Origin: Candidatus Methylomirabilota bacterium | Lineage (GTDB): Bacteria; Methylomirabilota; Methylomirabilia; Rokubacteriales; CSP1-6 | Direction of reading: 5' to 3' | Assembly: GCA_046733575.1 (NCBI GenBank) | Contig: JBKPPN010000218.1 | Span: 1-30,108, forward strand | DNA length: 30,108 bases | In this document: positions 5,541 through 27,630 of the stretch, piece by piece | How the letters are laid out: the number at the start of each line of letters is the position of its first letter | Position numbering within the stretch: the first letter of the stretch is position 1 | The notes under the pieces: generated by a model | The model's input: the letters and a program-made list of their open reading frames with translations, nothing else | The model's database searches: none | What the model was told of the DNA's origin: nothing | Translations under genes and position numbers: made by a program

Positions 5541-6280
5541 GCTCGGCGACTCTCCCCCGGTTCCGGCCCGTCGGCGATCTCGCGGTGAGCGTCGAGCTGG
5601 GCGACGAGATCAGCCTGGACGTCAACACGCGGGTCCGCGCCCTGGAGCACCTGCTCGCAACACGCGGTGAGCCGGGCGTCACCGAGACCGTCCCGAGCTT
5701 TCGCGCGCTCCTCGTGTACTACGATCCGCTCGTCGTCCGCTACGACGCGCTCTGCGCGCGACTCACCACGCTCGCCGCGCACGCCTCCCCGGCGGCGCTG
5801 CCGCCCGCGCGCCACGTCGAGCTCCCGTGCTGTTACGAGGAGACGTTCGGCCTCGACCTGGTGGGCGCCGCGGCGCGCCTCGATCTCTCGCCCGAGGCGC
5901 TGATCGAGATCCATGCCGGCGCCGACTACATCGTCTACTTCATCGGGTTCACGCCCGGGCTGCCCTATCTCGATCTTCCGGAGCGGATCACGATTCCGCG
6001 CCTCGAGACCCCGCGCGTGCGCGTCCCGCCCAACAGCGTGTCGATCGGTGGGACGCAGTGCTGCATCTACTCGGTGGAGAGTCCGGGCGGCTTCTGGATC
6101 ATCGGACGCACCCCGGTCCCCCTCTACGATCCCTCACGCACCGAGCCCGTCCTGCTCCACGCGGGCGACCGCGTCCGCTTCCGCCGCATCGACGGCAGGG
6201 AGTTCGAGCGCATCAGCGAGGCGGCCCAGCGCGGGACGTATCGACCCGTGATCCGGAGCGACGTGGCCGCCCATCCGTGA
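5537..6280 (+). CDS. pxpB: 5-oxoprolinase subunit B (KipI/AHS1 family); start codon uncertain
   Basis: RPVGDLAVSVELGDEI, ETVPSFRALLVYYDP, VYFIGFTPGLPYL, PRVRVPPNSVSIGG and SPGGFWIIGRTP. Family similarity begins upstream of the first GTG (5585); the only start-like codon there is CTG at 5537. Confidence 0.85.
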   Translation: MSSATLPRFRPVGDLAVSVELGDEISLDVNTRVRALEHLLATRGEPGVTETVPSFRALLVYYDPLVVRYDALCARLTTLAAHASPAALPPARHVELPCCYEETFGLDLVGAAARLDLSPEALIEIHAGADYIVYFIGFTPGLPYLDLPERITIPRLETPRVRVPPNSVSIGGTQCCIYSVESPGGFWIIGRTPVPLYDPSRTEPVLLHAGDRVRFRRIDGREFERISEAAQRGTYRPVIRSDVAAHP

Positions 6281-7212
6281 TCGCGATCGTCGACCCCGGG
6301 CCGCTCACGACCGTGCAGGACCTCGGCCGCTTCGGCCAGCTCCGGTTCGGAATCCCGCCGTCGGGTCCCCTGGACCGCCCCGCCCTCGTCCTCGCCAACC
6401 GTCTCGTCGGCAATGCCGACGGCGCGGCGGCGCTCGAATGCACGCTGGGCGGCCCGCGTTTCGAGGTCGGCACGACCGTCGCGATGGCGGTCACCGGCGC
6501 CGACGTCGCCGTGTCCGTGAATGGCGAGGCCGCGCCGACCTGGACGACCGTGCCGCTGAAGTCGGGCGACGTGGTCAAGATCGGCATGGCGCGCTCGGGC
6601 GTGCGCTCGTACGTCGCCTTCGCGGGCGGCATCGACGTGCCGGTCGTGCTCGGATCGCGCGCGACGTACGTGCGAGGCCGACTGGGCGGCGTCGAGGGGC
6701 GTGCGCTGAAGAAGGGCGACCGGCTCTCGCTTCTGTCCGGCCCGGCGTCGCCCGCTCGGCGGCGGCTGAAGCCGGAGGCCGTTCCCGTCGCCGCGGCCGA
6801 CACCGAGCTCCGCGTCGTCCTGGGTCCGCAGGACGATCGGTTCACCGCCGAGGGCCTCGCCACGTTTCTCCGCTCCGCGTACGAGATGCAGCCGCAATCC
6901 GATCGCATGGGCGCGCGCCTGCGCGGGCCCGTCATCGCGCATCGCGCGGGCCACGACATCATCTCCGACGGGATCGCGCTCGGCAGCGTACAGGTGACCG
7001 GCGACGGGATGCCGATCGTGCTGCTCGTCGATCGGCAGTCGACCGGTGGTTACACGAAGATCGCCACGGTGTGCTCGTTCGACGTGAGCCGGCTGGCGCA
7101 GGTCAAGCCCGGGCATCGCGTACACTTCCGGGCCGTGACCGTCGACGAGGCGCACCGCGCGCTCACGGCGTCGGGTCGTGCGCTCGACACCGTGCTGGAG
7201 GAGATTTCATGA
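6277..7212 (+). CDS. pxpC: 5-oxoprolinase subunit C (KipA/AHS2 family)
   Basis: GTG 6277 overlaps the pxpB stop. Contains LTTVQDLGRFG, GPLD...LANRLVGN, RSYVAFAGGIDV, SDRMGARL and DRQSTGGYTKIA. Confidence 0.9.
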   Translation: MIAIVDPGPLTTVQDLGRFGQLRFGIPPSGPLDRPALVLANRLVGNADGAAALECTLGGPRFEVGTTVAMAVTGADVAVSVNGEAAPTWTTVPLKSGDVVKIGMARSGVRSYVAFAGGIDVPVVLGSRATYVRGRLGGVEGRALKKGDRLSLLSGPASPARRRLKPEAVPVAAADTELRVVLGPQDDRFTAEGLATFLRSAYEMQPQSDRMGARLRGPVIAHRAGHDIISDGIALGSVQVTGDGMPIVLLVDRQSTGGYTKIATVCSFDVSRLAQVKPGHRVHFRAVTVDEAHRALTASGRALDTVLEEIS

Positions 7213-19526: not shown

Positions 19527-19558
19527 GCGATACTCGCGCGATGCCCGCGGCGATTCTA
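19526..19558. promoter_or_regulatory. Candidate face-to-face divergent -10 elements
   Basis: Plus strand: TGC-GATACT (19526-19534), 6 nt before ATG 19541. Minus strand: TAGAAT (19558-19553), upstream of ATG 19526. Confidence 0.35.
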
Positions 19559-20710
19559 TCCCGGGGACCGTTCATGCGGGCCACGGTCACCAACTTCTTC
19601 TTCATCGCCAGCCTCAACGGGTTCGTGCTGCTGCCGCTGCACATTCACGCCCAGGGCGGTACCGACGTCGACGTCGGCATCGTGATGGGGATCTACAGCG
19701 CGGTGGGGATCGTCGCACAGCCCCTCGTGGGGCCGTGGGTCGACGCGGTCGGCCGGCGGCCCTTCATGCTGTGCGGCGTCGCGCTAACCGTCGCGTCCGC
19801 GGCGCTCGCCGTCGTGCTGGACACGATCCCGATGCTCGCCCTCGTGCGCGCGCTCCAGGGCGTCGCGTTCTCGATGTTCTTCGTGGCCGCGTTCGCCTAC
19901 GTGCTGGACCTGGTCCCTCCCGCCGAGCGCGGGTGGGCGCTCGGCATCTACGGTGTCTCCGGATTCGTGTCCACCGCGCTGGCCCCGCTCGTGGGCGAGC
20001 TGGTCATCCGGCGCTGGGGCTTTCGCGCGCTGGCGGCCGGCTCGGGACTGATCGCGCTCGTGGCCGCCGTGCTCGTGTGGCAGCTGCGACCCGCGCGCCG
20101 TGTGACGGTGCCCGCGACGGGTCCAGGCTGGACGCGCAGCGCGCTCACCGACGTCCTGCAGCGGTCGATGGCGGTCACGATCTTCTTCGGGCTGGGGACG
20201 GGGACGATCTTCGCCTTCCTCCCGACGTTCGCGGAGAGCCTGGGCGTCAGGACGCTGGCGATCTTCTACACCGCGTACGCGGTGGCCGCCATGGCGGTGC
20301 GCGTCTTCGGCGGGACGCTCATCGACACGCGCGGTCGTCGCGCCGTCATCGTGCCCGCGATGCTCGTGCAGACGACCGCCACGGGCGTCCTCGCCGCGCT
20401 GGGCGCGCTCGCCACGCGCGACGTGCGGCTGCCCGCCATCCCGGCGCTGTTCGTGGCCGGCGTCCTGGCGGGTGGCGCGCACGGCTTCCTCTATCCGGGT
20501 CTCGCCGCGCTGGTGACGGACCGCACGCCGGAGAGTCGCCGCGGCGCCGTGGTGGGCACGTTCAGCGCGGTGATGCTGGTGGGACAATCCGCGGGCGCGT
20601 TCGCCTTCGGCTACATCGCGCACGCCGCGGGATACTTCGTCATGTGGGCGTCGCTGACCGCGCTGCTCCTCGTCGGACTCCTGCTGAGCCTCCGCCTGCC
20701 CGGACGCTGA
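19541..20710 (+). CDS. MFS transporter
   Basis: About 12 hydrophobic segments, with MFS motif A-like GPWVDAVGRR and GTLIDTRGRR. Start is 19541 or 19574. Confidence 0.9.
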   Translation: MPAAILSRGPFMRATVTNFFFIASLNGFVLLPLHIHAQGGTDVDVGIVMGIYSAVGIVAQPLVGPWVDAVGRRPFMLCGVALTVASAALAVVLDTIPMLALVRALQGVAFSMFFVAAFAYVLDLVPPAERGWALGIYGVSGFVSTALAPLVGELVIRRWGFRALAAGSGLIALVAAVLVWQLRPARRVTVPATGPGWTRSALTDVLQRSMAVTIFFGLGTGTIFAFLPTFAESLGVRTLAIFYTAYAVAAMAVRVFGGTLIDTRGRRAVIVPAMLVQTTATGVLAALGALATRDVRLPAIPALFVAGVLAGGAHGFLYPGLAALVTDRTPESRRGAVVGTFSAVMLVGQSAGAFAFGYIAHAAGYFVMWASLTALLLVGLLLSLRLPGR

Positions 20711-20715
20711 CCGTA

Positions 20716-20721
20716 TATACT
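20716..20721 (+). promoter_or_regulatory. Candidate -10 (TATACT), leaderless geometry
   Basis: TATACT followed by exactly 6 nt and then ATG at 20728. Confidence 0.55.
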
Positions 20722-20727
20722 CGCGCC

Positions 20728-20802
20728 ATGCTCACGCGCGCCGCGATGCCGATGCGCCGCGCCGCCGCGCGCCCGCCTCGTTGGCGCGCCGCCCATGCCT
20801 GA
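20728..20802 (+). CDS. Putative leaderless upstream ORF (24 aa) overlapping the AAA start
   Basis: MLTRAAMPMRRAAARPPRWRAAHA*. Its TGA (20800-20802) overlaps the AAA start as ATGCCTGA, and the AAA ATG has no SD. Confidence 0.4.
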   Translation: MLTRAAMPMRRAAARPPRWRAAHA

Positions 20803-21736
20803 GCGCGAGCCCGAGGAACTGCAGTGGGCCATCCAGCGGCGGCTGGAAGACGTCTTCGCGAAGCTGGGAGAGAAGTTCGGCGACCTCACCGGCCGTGTCG
20901 AGATGCAGATGCGTCCCACCGTCACGTTCGACGAGGTGGGCGGGCTGCACCAGGCCAAGGAGCTGCTGCGCGGGTTCGCGCGCGCCCTCACGGACCCGGA
21001 GCTCTACCGGAAGTGGGGCATCGCGCCACCGAAGGGCGTGCTGCTCTACGGTCCCCCGGGCACCGGCAAGGCCATGCTGGCGCGGGCGCTCGCCACCGCG
21101 TCCGGCGCGATCTTCTATCACCTGAAGCTCATGAACCTGACCTCGAAGTTCGGCGCCAACACCGGCGAGCTGCTGCAGGAGATCTTCCGCATCGTGGTGG
21201 GCGAGGGGCGCGCGGTGCTCTTCCTCGACGAGGCGGAGGCGCTGTCGCTGGAGCACCTGCTGCCACCGCCCCAGGCGCGCGAGGCGAGCGCGCGGCTGGT
21301 CGCGTCGCTGTGTGAGAAGCTCGACGCGATCGCGCCCGAGGCGCGCGTGCTCGTGGTCGGCGCGACGAGCCGGACGGATGCGATCGACCCGGGGCTCGTG
21401 GCGCCTGGCCGTCTCGACCACCTGATCGAGATCGCGCTGCCCGACGCGTCCGCGCAGCAGGAGATCCTCGAAGGCCTGCGCACGCGGGCCGAGCGCAACG
21501 CCGAGCGCACGCTCTTCGACACCATCGACTACCGCAAGGTCCTGCCCGTCATGGGCGGCATGAGCGGCGCGGATCTGTCGGAGATCGTGCGGCGCGCGCT
21601 CGAGACGAAGGTGCACCGCGCGGCCGCGGACGGTGACGCCCCGCTCGTGACCACGGACGATCTCCTCGTCACCGTCGACGCGTACAAGCGCGTGCGAAGC
21701 GTGGTGGAGAAGATCCGCTACGGTCAGTACCTCTGA
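20795..21736 (+). CDS. Minimal classical-clade AAA ATPase (ARC/PAN/Cdc48-like module) with C-terminal GQYL proteasome-docking motif
   Basis: PTVTFDEVGGL, PPKGVLLYGPPGTGKA, LFLDE, SRH-like ATSRTDAIDPGLVAPGRLD and MSGADL. Ends RYGQYL-stop (21722-21736). Confidence 0.85.
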   Translation: MPEREPEELQWAIQRRLEDVFAKLGEKFGDLTGRVEMQMRPTVTFDEVGGLHQAKELLRGFARALTDPELYRKWGIAPPKGVLLYGPPGTGKAMLARALATASGAIFYHLKLMNLTSKFGANTGELLQEIFRIVVGEGRAVLFLDEAEALSLEHLLPPPQAREASARLVASLCEKLDAIAPEARVLVVGATSRTDAIDPGLVAPGRLDHLIEIALPDASAQQEILEGLRTRAERNAERTLFDTIDYRKVLPVMGGMSGADLSEIVRRALETKVHRAAADGDAPLVTTDDLLVTVDAYKRVRSVVEKIRYGQYL

Positions 21737-21747
21737 GGCGGCGGGGC

Positions 21748-22185
21748 ATGGCCGCACCGACGAACGACGACGCCGGCGTGACGACGACGGAGGTCCGCGT
21801 CCGCTACAAGGACACGGATTGCATGAAGGTCGCGTACTACGGCAACTACCTGACGTACTTTGAGGTCGGACGCGTCGAGTACCTCCGCCAGCGCGGGCTG
21901 CCGATGTCGGAGGTCGATCGCCGCGTTCACATGCCGGTGGTGGAGGCGACCGTCCGGTACGTGAAGCCGGCGCGCCTCGACGATCGGCTGCTCGTGCGGT
22001 GCTGGATCAGCGAGAAGAAGCGCGCGAGCTTCCGCTTCAGCTACGACATCCGTGACGAGGGCGACGAGCGCATCGCGCATGGCCACACGCTGCACGCGTG
22101 TCAGGACCCGGCCACGGGCAAGCTCGTCGGGATTCCGGCGTGGCTCGCCGGCGTCATGGTCGTCGCCGCCGTCCCGACGTCCTGA
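21748..22185 (+). CDS. YbgC/FadM-family acyl-CoA thioesterase
   Basis: VRVRYKDTD.M.VAYYGNYLTYFEVGR and Y.KPARLDD. Confidence 0.85.
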   Translation: MAAPTNDDAGVTTTEVRVRYKDTDCMKVAYYGNYLTYFEVGRVEYLRQRGLPMSEVDRRVHMPVVEATVRYVKPARLDDRLLVRCWISEKKRASFRFSYDIRDEGDERIAHGHTLHACQDPATGKLVGIPAWLAGVMVVAAVPTS

Positions 22186-22207
22186 GGCCCGCGGTGCGCG
22201 TCGCCCC

Positions 22208-22235
22208 TTGGACGGGGCGCCACGTCGGGTATACT
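22208..22235 (+). promoter_or_regulatory. Candidate sigma70 promoter TTGGAC-N16-TATACT
   Basis: The -35 sits in the loop of a 6-bp inverted repeat (CGCCCC/GGGGCG, 22202-22219). ATG follows 10 nt after the -10. Confidence 0.55.
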
Positions 22236-22245
22236 GCGTCGTCCC

Positions 22246-22485
22246 ATGCGAGAAGAGGCGCTCCGATCGACCATCCGTCAGAAGCTCCTCGACGGCCACT
22301 TGCCGCAGGCGAAGTGCCAGATCACGTGGTTCGGGCCGGGGAGTCGGCAGACGTGTGTCGCGTGCGATCGCACGATCGAGCCCAGCCACGTGGAGTGCGA
22401 GTGCGAGCATCCCGACGGCGGCGTGCTGCGGTTCCACCGGGAGTGCTTCGCGTTGTGGGACGAGATTCGCCAGGCGCTCGGCTGA
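22246..22485 (+). CDS. Small Cys/His-rich putative zinc-finger protein (79 aa)
   Basis: C37-x2-C40 and H64-x2-C67, plus C24, C51 and C53. Has its own promoter and fills the intergenic gap. Confidence 0.75.
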   Translation: MREEALRSTIRQKLLDGHLPQAKCQITWFGPGSRQTCVACDRTIEPSHVECECEHPDGGVLRFHRECFALWDEIRQALG

Positions 22486-22524
22486 ACGTTCTGCCTCAGG
22501 AGGTTACCCTCGTCGTCCGTCGTG

Positions 22525-22530
22525 TATAAT
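22525..22530 (+). promoter_or_regulatory. Candidate -10 (TATAAT) for the ABC operon
   Basis: Perfect consensus hexamer 20 nt before ATG 22551; no clear -35. Confidence 0.55.
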
Positions 22531-22550
22531 TCTCGATCGGTCAACGCGCG

Positions 22551-23540
22551 ATGATCGAAGTCGAAGGCCTCACCAAGCAGTACGGGCCCATCACCGCGAT
22601 CCGCGACGTCTCCTTCTCCGTCGCGCCGGGCGAGATCGTGGGGTTCCTCGGTCCCAACGGCGCCGGGAAGTCCACGACCATGCGGATCCTCTCCTGCTTC
22701 ATGCCCGCGAGCGCGGGGACGGCCAAGGTCGCGGGGTACGACGTGTTCCGCGAGTCGATGGAAGTCCGCCGTCGCATCGGCTACCTGCCCGAGAACGTTC
22801 CCCTCTACACCGAGATGCGCGTGGCCGCGTATCTCGACTTCGTGGCCGAGATCAAGGGCGTCTCCCGGGCCACGCGTCGGCGGCGCGTCGCGGACGCCAT
22901 GGACCGGTGCCTGATCGCCGACGTGCAGAACCGCCTCATCGGCAAGCTGTCGAAGGGCTATCGCCAGCGCGTGGGGCTGGCGCAGGCGATCATCAGCGAT
23001 CCGGCCGTGCTGATCCTCGACGAGCCCACCATCGGACTGGATCCCCGTCAGATCGCCGAGATCCGGGCGCTCATCAAGTCGCTCGCCGGCGAGCACACCG
23101 TCATCCTGTCCACGCACATCCTCCCCGAGGTGTCGATGGTGTGCAGCAGCGTGATCATCATCAACAAGGGCGCCATCGTGGCCCAGGGCCCCATCGACAC
23201 GCTGGTGGAGCAGTTCTTCCCGACCGCGCGCGTCCACGTGCAGCTCGACGGCCCCGCGGCCACGGTGCGGTCGGCGCTGCAGAAGATCTCCGGCGTGGTC
23301 ACCGTGCACGACGCCGCGCCCACGGGTGAGCCCGCTCCCGGCTTCGTGGTGGAGTCCGCCCGCGGACGCGACGTGCGCGGTGAGGTCTTCCGTCTCGCCG
23401 CCGAGCAGCGCTGGCCGCTCCTGGAACTCCGCCGCGTCGGCATGACGCTGGAAGAGGTGTTCATGCGCATCGTGGCGGGCGAGGAGACGGACGGCGCGGG
23501 CGTCGCGGGCGACATCGCGCCGCGTGAGGTGACGGCGTGA
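22551..23540 (+). CDS. ABC transporter ATP-binding protein (GldA-like)
   Basis: GPNGAGKST, signature LSKGYRQR, ILDEP and LSTH; has a C-terminal accessory domain. Confidence 0.93.
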   Translation: MIEVEGLTKQYGPITAIRDVSFSVAPGEIVGFLGPNGAGKSTTMRILSCFMPASAGTAKVAGYDVFRESMEVRRRIGYLPENVPLYTEMRVAAYLDFVAEIKGVSRATRRRRVADAMDRCLIADVQNRLIGKLSKGYRQRVGLAQAIISDPAVLILDEPTIGLDPRQIAEIRALIKSLAGEHTVILSTHILPEVSMVCSSVIIINKGAIVAQGPIDTLVEQFFPTARVHVQLDGPAATVRSALQKISGVVTVHDAAPTGEPAPGFVVESARGRDVRGEVFRLAAEQRWPLLELRRVGMTLEEVFMRIVAGEETDGAGVAGDIAPREVTA

Positions 23541-24307
23541 AGGTCTGGCCGATCTTCAAGAAGGAGATCCGCCTTTACTTCACGTCGCCCGTGGCGTACG
23601 TCGTGCTCGCCGTCTTCCTGGTGATCGCGGGGTACTTCTTCTACTCGATCTTCAACTTCTTCGCCATGGCCTCGATGCAGGCGGCCATGAACCCGCAGAT
23701 GGCGCGCGACCTCACCGTCACCGAGAGCGTGCTGCGGCCGCTCTTCTCCAACATCAGCGTGATCCTGCTCCTGCTCATCCCGCTCCTCACCATGCGGCTC
23801 TTCGCGGAGGAGCGCCGGTCGGGGACCATCGAGTTGCTCCTGACCTATCCCGTGCGCGACGGCGCCGTCCTCATCGGCAAGTACCTGGCCGCCCTCGTCC
23901 TCTACGCCATCATGCTGGGCTTCACGCTGCTGTATCCCGCACTGCTCGCCTACTTCGGGGCGCGGCCGGAGTGGGGACCGCTGCTCACCGGGTATGTCGG
24001 TCTGCTGCTCATGGGCGCGACGTTCCTGTCCGTGGGGCTGTTCGCGTCCTCGCTCACCGAGAACCAGATCGTGGCGTCGCTCATCACGTTCGGCGTCCTG
24101 CTCATCTTCTGGGTCCTGGGATGGAGCGCCGAGGCGGTGGGAGGGTCGTGGGGGAAGGTGCTCTCTGATCTGTCCCTGCTCGAGCACTACGACACGTTCG
24201 CCAAGGGCATTCTGGACACCAAGGACGTCATCTACTACGTCAACTTCACCGTCCTTGCGCTGTTCTTGACGCTGCGCTCGCTGGAGGCGCGGCGATGGAA
24301 GGGTTGA
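23537..24307 (+). CDS. ABC-2 permease (GldF-like)
   Basis: KKEIRLYFTSP.AY, TMRLFAEERRSGTIELLLTYPV, GKYLA and SSLTENQIVA; 6 TM-like segments. Confidence 0.9.
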   Translation: MKVWPIFKKEIRLYFTSPVAYVVLAVFLVIAGYFFYSIFNFFAMASMQAAMNPQMARDLTVTESVLRPLFSNISVILLLLIPLLTMRLFAEERRSGTIELLLTYPVRDGAVLIGKYLAALVLYAIMLGFTLLYPALLAYFGARPEWGPLLTGYVGLLLMGATFLSVGLFASSLTENQIVASLITFGVLLIFWVLGWSAEAVGGSWGKVLSDLSLLEHYDTFAKGILDTKDVIYYVNFTVLALFLTLRSLEARRWKG

Positions 24308-24308
24308 G

Positions 24309-25859
24309 ATGAGGCGGGTGGGCGACTGGATGAGCTACGCGGGGCTGCTGTTTCTGGCCCTGACCGTGCTGGCGACGGTGCGGCCGGCGTGGTGGCCGGA
24401 GCGGCTCGACCGCTTCCGCGTCGCCTTCTTCGTCGTCGGCGTGGTGCTCGTGCTCGCCTCCTTCCTGTTCCGTGTGCGCGACCTGCGTGGCACGCTCGGT
24501 CATCGCAGCACACGCTACGGCCTCAACACCGCGGTGATGGTGCTGCTCGTGCTCGGCGTCATCGGGTTCGTGGAGGCCTTCTCGTACCGGCACAACGCCC
24601 GCGTCGACCTCACCGAGAACCGCCGCAACAGTCTCTCGTCGCAGACGATCCAGCTCCTGGGCAGCCTGAAGGACGACGTCACGGCGACGGGCTTCTTCCG
24701 GCCCGACCAGCCGGGCAAGCGCGTGGCCGAGGACCTCTTCAAGCAGTACGCGCGCTACGCGAACGGAAAGTTCACCTGGAAGACGGTCGATCCCGACCGC
24801 GAGCCGGCCCTCGCGCGCCGCTACGGGATCGAGTCGTACGGCACGGTCGTCCTCGAGACGAAGGCCCGCTCGGAGAAGGTGCTGGATGCCGAGGAGGAGA
24901 AGCTCACCAACGGGCTCGTGAAGCTCACGCGCGAGGGCAAGCGCGTGGTGTACGTGCTGCAGGGCCACGGCGAGCACGATCTCAACAACACCGACCAGCC
25001 CGGCTTCAGCGTGGCGAAGGGCGAAGTCGAGAAGGCGAACTACGACGTCAAGCCGATCGTCCTCGCCCAGCAGGAGAAGATCCCGGACGACGCCGCCGTC
25101 GTGATCGTCCCCGGGCCACGCACGGACCTGCTACCCCCCGAGATCGCGGCCATCGAGGGCTACATCGGCCGGGGCGGCAAACTCCTCGTCATGCTCGACT
25201 CGACGTTCACGGGCAAGGTCCGCGAGGCGGCGCTCCGGAAGACGCTGGCCGACAAGTACGGTATCGACGCGGGCGACAACCTCGTGATCGAGGTCAATCC
25301 GGTGGCCCGGCTCTTCGGCGCCACCGCGGACATGCCGATCGTGCAGCAGTACGAGTCGCACCCCATCACGCGGGACATGCGGGGGATCATGACCATCTTC
25401 CCGCTCAGCCGCACGGTCGACCCCGCCAAGACGCCGCCCGCCGGCGTGAACGTCCTCTCGCTGGTGAAGACCAGCACGCAGAGCTGGGCGGAGACGAACC
25501 GCGCCGCGCTCGAGAAGGGGCAGATCAACCCCGACCCCGAGGACCCCAAGGGGCCGCTCTCCCTCGCCGTCGTGGCGACGAAGGACAAGGCGCGCATCGT
25601 CGTGTACGGCACGTCGGAGGTCGCGTCCAACCAGTTCCTGAACTTCCAGGGCAACCGCGACTTCTTCATGAACACCGTCAGCTGGCTCGCCGAGGAAGAG
25701 GGGCAGATCGCCATCCGACCGAAGGACACCAAGCAGACGCCCGTGTTCCTCAGCGCGCAGCAGGCGCAGGCATCCTTCCTCCTGCCCGTCGTCCTGCTGC
25801 CCGCCATCCCGATCGTCGGCGGCATCATCGCGGTCGTCCGTCGCCGCTCCGCGAACTAA
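24309..25859 (+). CDS. GldG-family ABC auxiliary component
   Basis: N-terminal TMs, RVDLTENRRNSLS.QT, VY.L.GHGE, GN.DFFMN.VSWL and a C-terminal TM ending in RRR. Confidence 0.85.
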   Translation: MRRVGDWMSYAGLLFLALTVLATVRPAWWPERLDRFRVAFFVVGVVLVLASFLFRVRDLRGTLGHRSTRYGLNTAVMVLLVLGVIGFVEAFSYRHNARVDLTENRRNSLSSQTIQLLGSLKDDVTATGFFRPDQPGKRVAEDLFKQYARYANGKFTWKTVDPDREPALARRYGIESYGTVVLETKARSEKVLDAEEEKLTNGLVKLTREGKRVVYVLQGHGEHDLNNTDQPGFSVAKGEVEKANYDVKPIVLAQQEKIPDDAAVVIVPGPRTDLLPPEIAAIEGYIGRGGKLLVMLDSTFTGKVREAALRKTLADKYGIDAGDNLVIEVNPVARLFGATADMPIVQQYESHPITRDMRGIMTIFPLSRTVDPAKTPPAGVNVLSLVKTSTQSWAETNRAALEKGQINPDPEDPKGPLSLAVVATKDKARIVVYGTSEVASNQFLNFQGNRDFFMNTVSWLAEEEGQIAIRPKDTKQTPVFLSAQQAQASFLLPVVLLPAIPIVGGIIAVVRRRSAN

Positions 25860-25866
25860 CCGCTTC

Positions 25867-27630
25867 ATGCGCTGGCAGACGACGGCCGTCCTCGCCATCA
25901 TTCTCATCGCCATCGGCGCCTTCTACTACGTCTACGAGATTCGCCAGGGCCCAGCGCGCGAGCAGCAAGAGGCGCGCAAGGGGCGCGTCTTCACCGCGGA
26001 GCCCGCCGACGTGACCGAGATGCAGCTCAAGCGGCCGTCCGACACCGTGAACCTCAAGCGTGAGGGCACGGGCTGGCAGATGCTGGCGCCCGTGAAGACG
26101 TCTGGCGACCGTGCGACCGTGGACGATACGGTCAGCACCGTGGTGACCGCGAAGATGGACCGAGAGGTGGCCAACGCGCCGGCGTCCCTCGCCGACTTTG
26201 GTCTCGACAAGCCGGCCGCCGAGTTGAATCTCACCCTGAAGGACGGCAAGCACCTGGCCCTGCTGCTCGGGGCGAAGAACCCGACCGGCGTCTGGGTCTA
26301 CGCCAAGGAGAAGGACAAGCCGGCGGTCTTCGTGCTCGGCGAGAGCGTGCTGCGCGACACCACGCGCCCGGTGGCCGACTATCGCGACAAGACCGTCCTC
26401 GCGTTCGACCGGAAGGACGTGACGGGCCTGGATGTCGTGCTGCCGTCCGAGACCATCGCGCTCGCCCAGGACGGGGGGAAGTGGACGCTGACGCGTCCCG
26501 CCACCTACCCCGCGGACGGCGATATCGTGAGCGACGTCCTCGACAAGCTGGCCAGCGCCAAGGTGCGCGAGTTCGTGGCCGAGGCCCCGGCGTCGCTCGA
26601 GCCGTTCGGCCTGACGCGTCCCGTGCGCGTCGACGTGCAGACGGGGAAGGACAAGGACCGCGCCACCAAGTCGCTCCTGCTCGGTCGCGTGGACGAGACC
26701 AAGAAGGGTGTCTACGCCATGCGCCCCGGCGAGCCGAGCGTGCTGTTGCTCGCCGAGGAAGTGTCGACGGCCCTGCCCCGCACGGTGGCCGCCCTCCGGA
26801 ACAAGAACCTCATCGAGGTCGCGGCGGACAAGGTGACGACAGTCGATCTCCAGAGCCCGAAGGGACAGGTCACGCTGGTCCGTGACAACGACCGCTGGAA
26901 GATCACCGCGCCCGAGCCGCTCCCCGCGGATCAGGTGGAAGCGGGCGGCGTCCTCTTCAAGCTGCGCGAGCTGCGCGCGCAGGCGTTTCTCACCGACGAC
27001 GCCTCCGGCATCGCCAAGTACCTGACCAGGCCCGAGGTGAAGGTCACCGTGACGTACAAGGAAGGGGCGCCCGCCGTGGTGCTGCTCGCTCCGTCACCGG
27101 AGCAACGCGGCGGACGGCCGACCGCGTACGCCGCCGTGGAGGGCCGCGGGCCCGTGATCCTGGTCGACGGTCGCTCCCTCACGGACCTCTCGCGATCGGC
27201 GACCGACCTGCGCGACCGCGCGCTCTTCGGCGACCTGCAGCCGCGCGACGCCAAGCGGGTGCGGATCACGAGCGAGGGCAAGACCGTCGTCCTCGAGCGG
27301 AGCGGCGATCGCGACTGGAAGATGCTCGAGCCCTCGAAGGGCAGTGCCAACGGCAGCAAGGTCGAGGATCTGCTCTACACGCTGCGCGGTCTCAAGTGGA
27401 CGGAGATCGTCTCGCCGCAGGGCGTCGACGCCGCCCGCTACGGTGTCGACGCGCCGACCATGACCGTCACGCTGCTGAAGTCCGACGGCGCGGAGCTCGC
27501 CTCCCTGGCCGTCGGCAAGCGAGAGAATGGCCGCGCGTACGTGCGGGCAGGTAAGGGCCCGGCGATCGAGGCGGTGGACGTCAAGCAGCTCGGCGACGCG
27601 CCGAAGATCCCGGACGACTTCAAGGGGTGA
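25867..27630 (+). CDS. DUF4340-domain protein with about four tandem repeats
   Basis: N-terminal TM anchor. Repeated W.M..P / (F,Y)GL..P / LLLG / (D,L)R.K units; typical partner of GldAFG-like loci. Confidence 0.75.
   Translation: MRWQTTAVLAIILIAIGAFYYVYEIRQGPAREQQEARKGRVFTAEPADVTEMQLKRPSDTVNLKREGTGWQMLAPVKTSGDRATVDDTVSTVVTAKMDREVANAPASLADFGLDKPAAELNLTLKDGKHLALLLGAKNPTGVWVYAKEKDKPAVFVLGESVLRDTTRPVADYRDKTVLAFDRKDVTGLDVVLPSETIALAQDGGKWTLTRPATYPADGDIVSDVLDKLASAKVREFVAEAPASLEPFGLTRPVRVDVQTGKDKDRATKSLLLGRVDETKKGVYAMRPGEPSVLLLAEEVSTALPRTVAALRNKNLIEVAADKVTTVDLQSPKGQVTLVRDNDRWKITAPEPLPADQVEAGGVLFKLRELRAQAFLTDDASGIAKYLTRPEVKVTVTYKEGAPAVVLLAPSPEQRGGRPTAYAAVEGRGPVILVDGRSLTDLSRSATDLRDRALFGDLQPRDAKRVRITSEGKTVVLERSGDRDWKMLEPSKGSANGSKVEDLLYTLRGLKWTEIVSPQGVDAARYGVDAPTMTVTLLKSDGAELASLAVGKRENGRAYVRAGKGPAIEAVDVKQLGDAPKIPDDFKG

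Follow-up and report, generated by a model that had tools for sequence, protein, structure and literature searches.

To our knowledge, bacterial proteasome biology has been worked out almost entirely in Actinobacteria, with Mpa/ARC and Bpa/PafE as the docking activators of the 20S particle and Cpa as a further interactor. Bpa, an ATP-independent activator studied mainly in mycobacteria, is a four-helix-bundle dodecamer without a nucleotide site. Opening of the mycobacterial 20S gate by Mpa and PafE/Bpa requires a C-terminal GQYL, acting via a conserved Lys of the alpha subunit (PMC12288473). Here we analyze an AAA protein of 313 residues that carries the same C-terminal GQYL and is encoded in a stretch of 30,108 nucleotides (nt), referred to as the window, which is contig JBKPPN010000218.1 (positions 1 to 30,108, forward strand) of a Candidatus Methylomirabilota bacterium (assembly GCA_046733575.1).

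Judged by sequence, the window protein belongs to a family of minimal AAA proteins of Methylomirabilota, each consisting of a short N-terminal helix, a PAN/Cdc48-like module and a KIRYGQYL tail. The family matches no described proteasome regulator: it joins an AAA fold to the tail of a bacterial activator, in a minimal architecture and with a decayed motor. A literature search, which was not exhaustive, returned no description of a stand-alone GQYL-tailed AAA family or of proteasome accessory factors in Methylomirabilota. We give about an even chance to the reading that these proteins form a ring that binds nucleotide, hydrolyzes little or none of it, docks to the ring of the 20S alpha subunit PrcA via GQYL, and caps or regulates the gate without mechanical unfolding. 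Somewhat short of even, in our estimate, is the broader proposal that a non-hydrolyzing, nucleotide-sensing, stand-alone AAA gate-keeper of 20S represents a third class of bacterial proteasome regulator, with the stages of the transition preserved in one phylum.

Fold and closest described systems

Pfam AAA (PF00004) is the sole domain of the window protein (residues 82-214; E 2e-24; 86.9 bits, cut-off 21.2). An AlphaFold2 model, built from a 77-sequence alignment, reached a pLDDT of 92 and a pTM of 0.88 and superposed on the AAA domain of PAN (3h4m) with a TMt of 0.89 and a root-mean-square deviation of 2.8 Å. By fold and hidden Markov model the protein is therefore a member of the classic AAA clade. 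The canonical catalytic set of this clade comprises GK[ST], DE, a sensor-1 Asn and two Arg residues in the second region of homology (SRH); the window protein has GKA, DE, ATS and A-PGR instead. It is a classic-clade AAA protein by fold and descent, not a canonical enzyme.

In the model, an N-terminal helix (residues 5-28) is followed by the AAA core, the lid, a terminal helix (residues 287-308) and a tail of five residues. Neither the Pfam search nor the model revealed a coiled-coil, OB or other N domain. The N-terminal region, although without a Pfam domain, is conserved across the family: R15, R16, D19 and L24 are each present in at least 90% of sequences, and G29 and G33 are invariant.

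Among the NCBIfam models, PAN ranked first for the window protein, followed by Cdc48, FtsH and ARC, all far below their cut-offs. The PAN models PRK03992/NF003069 and TIGR01242 gave 169.7 and 164 bits (cut-off 500), and the Mpa/ARC model TIGR03689 gave 108.5 bits (cut-off 504.75), which places the protein outside both families. No curated family model in Pfam or NCBIfam claims it as a member of a specific family.

The likeness to PAN comprises these top scores, the presence of 3h4m among the closest structures, and a Tyr-containing C-terminal docking tail, which is putative in the window protein. However, PAN is archaeal, whereas the window protein comes from a bacterial phylum, lacks the coiled coil and OB domain, ends in the bacterial GQYL rather than HbYX, and is degenerate at the Arg finger, the sensor-1 Asn and the pore loop. 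With Mpa/ARC the window protein shares the last four residues, the genome and the presumed 20S target. In contrast, ARC has a coiled-coil, a double OB and a beta-grasp domain, together with canonical GKT, KYVG, DE, SNR and RPGR motifs. Bpa/PafE, a GQYL-tailed ring that opens 20S without ATP hydrolysis, would be the functional analog of the proposed gate-keeper, but its fold is unrelated.

The best sequence matches in the PDB were VAT D1 (136 bits) and VAT D2 (116 bits), along with Cdc48/p97 modules. Archaeal Cdc48 and AMA dock to 20S (PMC3493965), and Cpa, a Cdc48-like protein of actinobacteria, interacts with the mycobacterial proteasome (PMC6017811). Cdc48, VAT and Cpa are active ATPases with two tandem AAA modules and an N domain, whereas the window protein has a single decayed module. 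Loss of catalytic residues in a classic-clade AAA module that is kept under selection is also found in the FtsHi proteins of plastids, and the Ycf2-FtsHi complex (8xku) is among the structural matches of the AlphaFold2 model. FtsHi, however, acts in hetero-oligomeric membrane motors, and nothing connects it with proteasome docking.

Motor motifs and their drift in the family

A preliminary description of this DNA, made from the sequence alone, had proposed that several catalytic motifs of the AAA module are degenerate. HMMER alignment to VAT and codon look-up found every residue it named in place (Table 1). Codon 93 is indeed GCC, giving Ala at the Mg-coordinating position of Walker A. Sensor 1 reads ATS192 where VAT reads ATN, and the SRH reads L-V-A203-P-G-R206 (21401-21412) against LRRPGR in VAT. 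Walker B retains DE at residues 145 and 146, as described, and the Arg that follows it in VAT and in basal relatives (DEID..R) is absent, its place being taken by the His of LSLEHLL. Pore loop 1 was described correctly in so far as SKFGA is degenerate; its aromatic residue, however, survives as Phe119, and the part that is lost is the hydrophobic-Gly pair (Y-G to G-A). In the AlphaFold2 model this segment is merged into a helix spanning residues 112-136. In sum, the window protein has lost the first Arg finger, the sensor-1 Asn, the post-Walker B Arg and the pore-loop hydrophobic-Gly pair, and has kept Lys92 and Arg206.

Among 138 other classic-clade AAA representatives from the same search, Walker A read GKT 273 times, GKS 7 times and GKA once. 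Asn occupied sensor 1 in 202 of 216 cases, and PGR was preceded by Arg in 171 of 174. The motif states of the window protein are very unusual for the clade and far from chance. Note that Ser at sensor 1 or Ser at Walker A, each by itself, does not disable AAA+ proteins.

The preliminary description had considered it unlikely that the joint substitutions are errors, and this was borne out. Position 93 is likewise encoded by GCC in the nearest relative (P0002, 96% identical), which comes from another NCBI assembly. This codon is also spanned, without differences, by contigs of three soil DNA runs and of a rhizosphere RNA run, and for codons 192 and 203 no variant is listed where run contigs cover them. 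The three soil DNA runs belong to one study and are possibly the source sample of the assembly itself. Comparison of the gene with that of P0002 gave a synonymous divergence (dS) of 0.67, a nonsynonymous divergence (dN) of 0.02 and a dN/dS of 0.03. The AAA protein is under strong purifying selection. A sequencing error or a pseudogene was ruled out by the independent assembly, the run contigs and the dN/dS value.

The contig from the RNA run (X11, 211 nt, from another study) is identical to window positions 20944-21154 and spans the Walker A region. It hints at transcription of the AAA gene in situ, with DNA carry-over as a possible source. A spike in depth at 21029-21070, present in all four runs, reflects a P-loop sequence common to AAA genes of other organisms and is not a specific feature of this gene.

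More than 1,700 relatives were found in a word-indexed search. The best 120 are 74-96% identical to the window protein, nearly all have 311-316 residues (the two exceptions have 320 and 324), and they are labeled Rokubacteria or Tectomicrobia wherever a name exists. Of 151 genomes of the phylum, 115 gave an ortholog in a six-frame scan, among them 88 of the 93 that belong to the window's own taxonomic family (f1). Identity is 62-96% within f1 and 43-56% in the other taxonomic families.

Motif columns were read from one alignment of 226 non-redundant members of the protein family (Methylomirabilota, Rokubacteria/NC10). Gly86 and Gly91 are invariant, and Lys92 and Arg206 are each present in 225 members. 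Position 93 is Ser in 113 sequences, Thr in 81, Ala in 27, Gly in 4 and Pro in 1, giving GKS or GKT in 194. Asp145 is found in 205 members and Glu146 in 196, the latter being replaced by Gln in 16 and by Asp in 12, so that Walker B also occurs as DQ, EE, ED and DD. Sensor 1 is Ser in 169, Asn in 26 and Thr in 23; position 203, the first SRH Arg, is Ala in 189 and Arg in 10; and Phe119 is conserved in 189. Thirteen D-Q sequences, including those of loci L108, L178 and L181, form one clade. The E-to-Q change at Walker B is the classic hydrolysis-dead substitution, used in the laboratory to trap the ATP-bound state of AAA+ proteins.

A tree was built without the motif columns and rooted on P0171 and P0211, longer homologs that lack GQYL. 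Its basal branches carry canonical GKT, KWY[G/A], DE, TNR and RPGR, and motor decay was therefore stepwise: the first SRH Arg was lost first, then W-Y of the pore loop, then the sensor-1 Asn. ATN and RPGR are confined to the basal branches and absent from the whole crown group, in which Walker B has become ED, DD, DQ or EE in sub-clades. Along the tree, the Walker A hydroxyl disappears or returns at least 13 times, and Walker B changes at least 8 times. The window protein is one of a GKA pair nested among GKS sequences. From alignment and tree, Ala93 is a recurrent, tolerated lineage variant, while ATS and APGR are fixed throughout the crown group. Canonical motifs in homologs, which the preliminary description had named as a refutation, gave a mixed result: GKS and GKT are common and Ala93 is not fixed, whereas ATN and RPGR occur in basal branches alone.

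Closest to the family from outside are the two root sequences, P0171 (515 residues) and P0211 (561 residues), whose AAA modules show 41-44% identity. Both combine canonical motifs with long N-terminal extensions, and their form may represent the ancestral architecture.

The alignment and tree show that the Mg-coordinating hydroxyl of Walker A and the Glu of Walker B are no longer under constraint in the family. These residues for Mg coordination and water activation vary freely, while Lys92 and Arg206 are near-invariant in a protein with a dN/dS of 0.03; such a pattern would be expected under selection for nucleotide binding but not for hydrolysis. The interpretation given in the preliminary description is partly supported. 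Its core, that the ring binds nucleotide but unfolds poorly, is backed by binding residues that are each kept in 225 of the 226 members and by the drift of the hydrolysis residues, although the comparison with homologs gave the mixed result described above. Its further suggestion of a nucleotide-sensing gate would also fit.

The same motif counts bear on the possibility that the protein is a working, if unconventional, ATPase and unfoldase of 20S. Ser192 would then serve as sensor 1, Arg206 as the sole Arg finger and Phe119 as the pore aromatic, and the GKA, GKG and DQ forms would be exceptions. Polar residues besides Asn act as sensor 1 in other AAA+ clades, which counts for this possibility, as do GKS or GKT in 194 of the 226 members, the Walker B Glu in 196 and Phe119 in 189. 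We nevertheless consider it unlikely. A hydrolysis-dependent enzyme would not be expected to tolerate at least 13 changes at the hydroxyl and at least 8 at Walker B under a dN/dS of 0.03. The window protein is itself GKA, the first SRH Arg is present in 10 of 226 members as against 171 of 174 related AAA modules, and the family has no N-terminal domain for substrate recognition.

Table 1. Coordinates of the AAA gene, its motifs and the adjoining gene (positions in the window)
Feature	Position	Strand	Basis or remark
AAA gene, 313 residues, GQYL end (P0001)	20795-21736	+	Open reading frame list; Pfam AAA; AlphaFold2 model; dN/dS 0.03
Family-specific N-terminal helix, residues 5-28	20807-20878	+	AlphaFold2 secondary structure; occupies the place of the PAN/ARC coiled-coil/OB
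Walker A GPPGTGKA, G86-A93	21050-21073	+	Lys92 kept; Mg-coordinating Thr/Ser replaced by Ala93, codon GCC at 21071-21073
Pore loop 1 S117-K-F-G-A121, degenerate	21143-21157	+	Aligns with VAT SKYYG/SKWVG; basal relatives K-W-Y-G/A
Walker B D145-E146 (21227-21232) and LSLEHLL	21227-21259	+	Usual downstream Arg is His
Sensor 1 A-T-S192	21362-21370	+	A-T-N in the classic clade; Ser192 codon 21368-21370
Second region of homology L-V-A203-P-G-R206-L-D	21395-21418	+	First Arg finger lost, second kept
C-terminal octapeptide K-I-R-Y-G-Q-Y-L, putative 20S alpha-ring docking tail	21710-21733	+	Invariance
4HBT thioesterase	21748-22185	+	Pfam 4HBT E 1.9e-16; start 11 nt past the AAA stop codon

The GQYL tail and the proteasome system of the genome

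KIRYGQYL is the longest invariant run in the AAA protein. All 121 close homologs examined share it unchanged, as does every ortholog from across the phylum that was fetched independently of the motif, down to 43% identity. Among the genome's 24,361 open reading frames with 80 or more codons, only 4 have GQYL as their last residues, compared to 0.006 expected from position-specific residue frequencies. These four encode two ARCs, one Bpa and the window AAA protein. The genes prcB, prcA and pafA lie together on one contig (C298), and Lys52 of PrcA is invariant in 19 PrcA sequences of the phylum. The window protein thus combines two features of the bacterial activators, a C-terminal GQYL and a cognate 20S with the conserved alpha Lys in the same genome. 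In a complex prediction, two copies of PrcA with residues 216-313 of the window protein scored 0.53, against 0.51 for a control in which an unrelated protein stood in for PrcA, a difference that favors neither binding nor its absence.

The Bpa/PafE homolog (156 residues, PF10759 E 6e-49, ending in GQYL) is encoded on contig C18 of the window genome (G000) at 6656-7126, minus strand (L011:6656-7126). The ATP-independent activator is thus present in this non-actinobacterial phylum as well. Two full-length ARC/Mpa genes were found, at C502:4396-6231 (plus strand) and C517:485-3076 (minus strand), with 746 and 726 bits to TIGR03689. Both ARCs end in TGQYL; the C502 copy, which adjoins dop, is the richer of the two in Lys. 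The two may be paralogs, or one may be a contaminant (bin contamination is 3.8%). HslV was rejected as a partner of the window protein: canonical HslU adjoins HslV in every genome checked, and HslV therefore already has a partner.

A scan for the C-terminal octapeptide pattern, with one genome per species, returned almost only metagenome-assembled genomes labeled Methylomirabilota, Rokubacteria or NC10. Five with other labels were checked (four labeled as non-Methylomirabilota and one as 'uncultured bacterium'), and all of them carry a bacterial 20S alpha subunit. Note that two of the four are genomes already in the phylum sample.

Docking to the alpha ring via GQYL need not entail activation. 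The protein could cap the ring competitively, serve in storage or dormancy, or act as a chaperone of 20S assembly. The invariant tail and the four GQYL reading frames would support docking of this kind equally, and HbYX-bearing chaperones of the Pba/PbaA type use the same alpha-ring pockets. Moreover, with a pore loop that is degenerate and modeled as a helix, a translocation channel may not be maintained. No computed feature separates such a docker from an activator, but the GQYL of Mpa and PafE is tied to gate opening (PMC12288473), and we regard docking without activation as quite improbable.

Proposed action of the ring, distribution and gene neighborhood

For the preferred reading, that of a nucleotide-binding gate-keeper, we infer the oligomeric state, nucleotide binding, docking and effect on degradation as follows. 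The AAA fold suggests that the protein forms a hexameric ring, whose module in the crown group would by now be a pseudo-ATPase or hydrolyze ATP very slowly at most. The GQYL tails of the ring would enter the Lys52 pockets of the PrcA ring in the same way as the tails of Mpa/ARC and Bpa/PafE. Nucleotide binding, rather than hydrolysis, would bring the ring into the conformation in which its tails are presented. It would then cap 20S and open or regulate its gate without mechanical unfolding, admitting peptides or proteins that are already unfolded. Alternatively, it may be a competitor of ARC and Bpa at the alpha ring, with its action possibly tracking cellular ATP/ADP. A precedent is found in a report on PAN and the 26S proteasome, according to which ATP binding alone drives the association of the ATPase with 20S and gate opening (PMC4608255).

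Several observations weigh against this gate-keeper. Most members of the family keep GKS or GKT, DE and one SRH Arg, a combination with which residual hydrolysis may be possible. The tail extends only ~5 residues past the last helix in the AlphaFold2 model, which is short for docking unless the helix frays. In f1 and two further taxonomic families (f2 and f3) the AAA gene has no linkage to proteasome genes and is flanked by genes for a major facilitator superfamily (MFS) transporter and a thioesterase. Nor is there an association between the AAA protein and 20S alpha within the phylum: alpha, found in 120 of the 151 genomes, was unmatched in 22 of 115 carriers of the AAA protein and in 9 of 36 non-carriers. 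This co-occurrence is uninformative, because 20S is nearly universal in the phylum and the genomes are related and incomplete. Finally, in three carriers, G013 and G017 (one genus) and G115, no match to 20S, ARC or PafA/Dop was found, whereas the AAA protein and its tail are kept. These genomes are 93%, 100% and 98% complete, respectively.

Five carriers lacking alpha were checked further. Two of them have ARC or PafA fragments at contig ends, and their absences are therefore probably assembly gaps. The AAA protein of G013 and G017 has a Walker B of E-E, a Walker A of GKA or GKG, and an intact KIRYGQYL. Three close relatives of this genus with the same EE variant carry prcBA, and any loss in the genus is therefore recent or an assembly artifact. 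The argument that a proteasome-less lineage shows independence of 20S is weakened by these relatives.

The order MFS-AAA-thioesterase is conserved in f1, f2 and f3 and missing in the basal taxonomic families, where the neighbors of the AAA gene vary (GNAT, LysM-SLT, CSD). In the window, the genes form part of a same-strand run at 19541-27630 that three families of the phylum have kept in common. The run encodes an MFS transporter, the AAA protein, the 4HBT thioesterase and a Cys-rich reading frame of 79 residues, and continues with an ABC ATPase, an ABC-2 permease, ABC_transp_aux (GldG-like) and DUF4340.

This arrangement raises the possibility of a function unrelated to the proteasome, in which YGQYL would bind another partner or the protein would work with the presumably co-transcribed thioesterase or with the transporter neighborhood. 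Consistent with such a function are the synteny in three families, with a gap of 11 nt to the thioesterase, and the persistence of the AAA protein in G013, G017 and G115. However, the synteny is missing in the basal families even though the tail is invariant there, and the family was found only in a phylum with widespread bacterial 20S. There is also only a small chance that the fourth GQYL terminus of the genome is unconnected to the other three, and 20S is present in close relatives of the proteasome-less genus. On balance, we think a proteasome-unrelated role improbable.

In one genome of a basal family (G124), arc and the AAA gene lie tail to tail, ~110 bp apart (L039, contig C1, 4187-5887 on the plus strand and 5998-7014 on the minus strand). 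The AAA ortholog of this genome has canonical motifs, and the adjacency to arc is the only direct link to the Pup-proteasome seen in the neighborhoods. Gene neighborhood was set aside as too weak a proteasome link, arc being adjacent in this single genome.

The adjacency in G124 does bear on another idea of the preliminary description, that the protein is a poison subunit, or more generally a regulatory one, mixing into ARC hexamers. The retained Arg206, which acts in trans, could sense the nucleotide of a neighboring subunit. In contrast, identity to the ARC AAA module is ~28-31%, and the window protein scores higher against the PAN and Cdc48 models. Coiled-coil and OB domains are missing from it, its invariant tail and N-terminal helix are its own, and it is still present in two genomes in which no ARC was found. 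On these grounds mixing into ARC hexamers is not favored, and we consider it very unlikely.

If the gate-keeper reading is true, the family adds a structurally minimal AAA cap to bacterial proteasome biology in a different and abundant soil phylum. Should the tail not bind 20S, GQYL termini would not be a safe predictor of proteasome partners. The ordered loss of residues for hydrolysis and threading is visible in living lineages, while the nucleotide pocket and the tail stay fixed, and the family offers a clear case of strong purifying selection acting on a pseudo-enzyme. The natural E-to-Q variants of Walker B and T-to-A and T-to-G variants of Walker A would serve as ready-made mechanistic mutants. 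With them, the long-discussed idea that nucleotide binding alone drives proteasome docking and gate opening would become testable.

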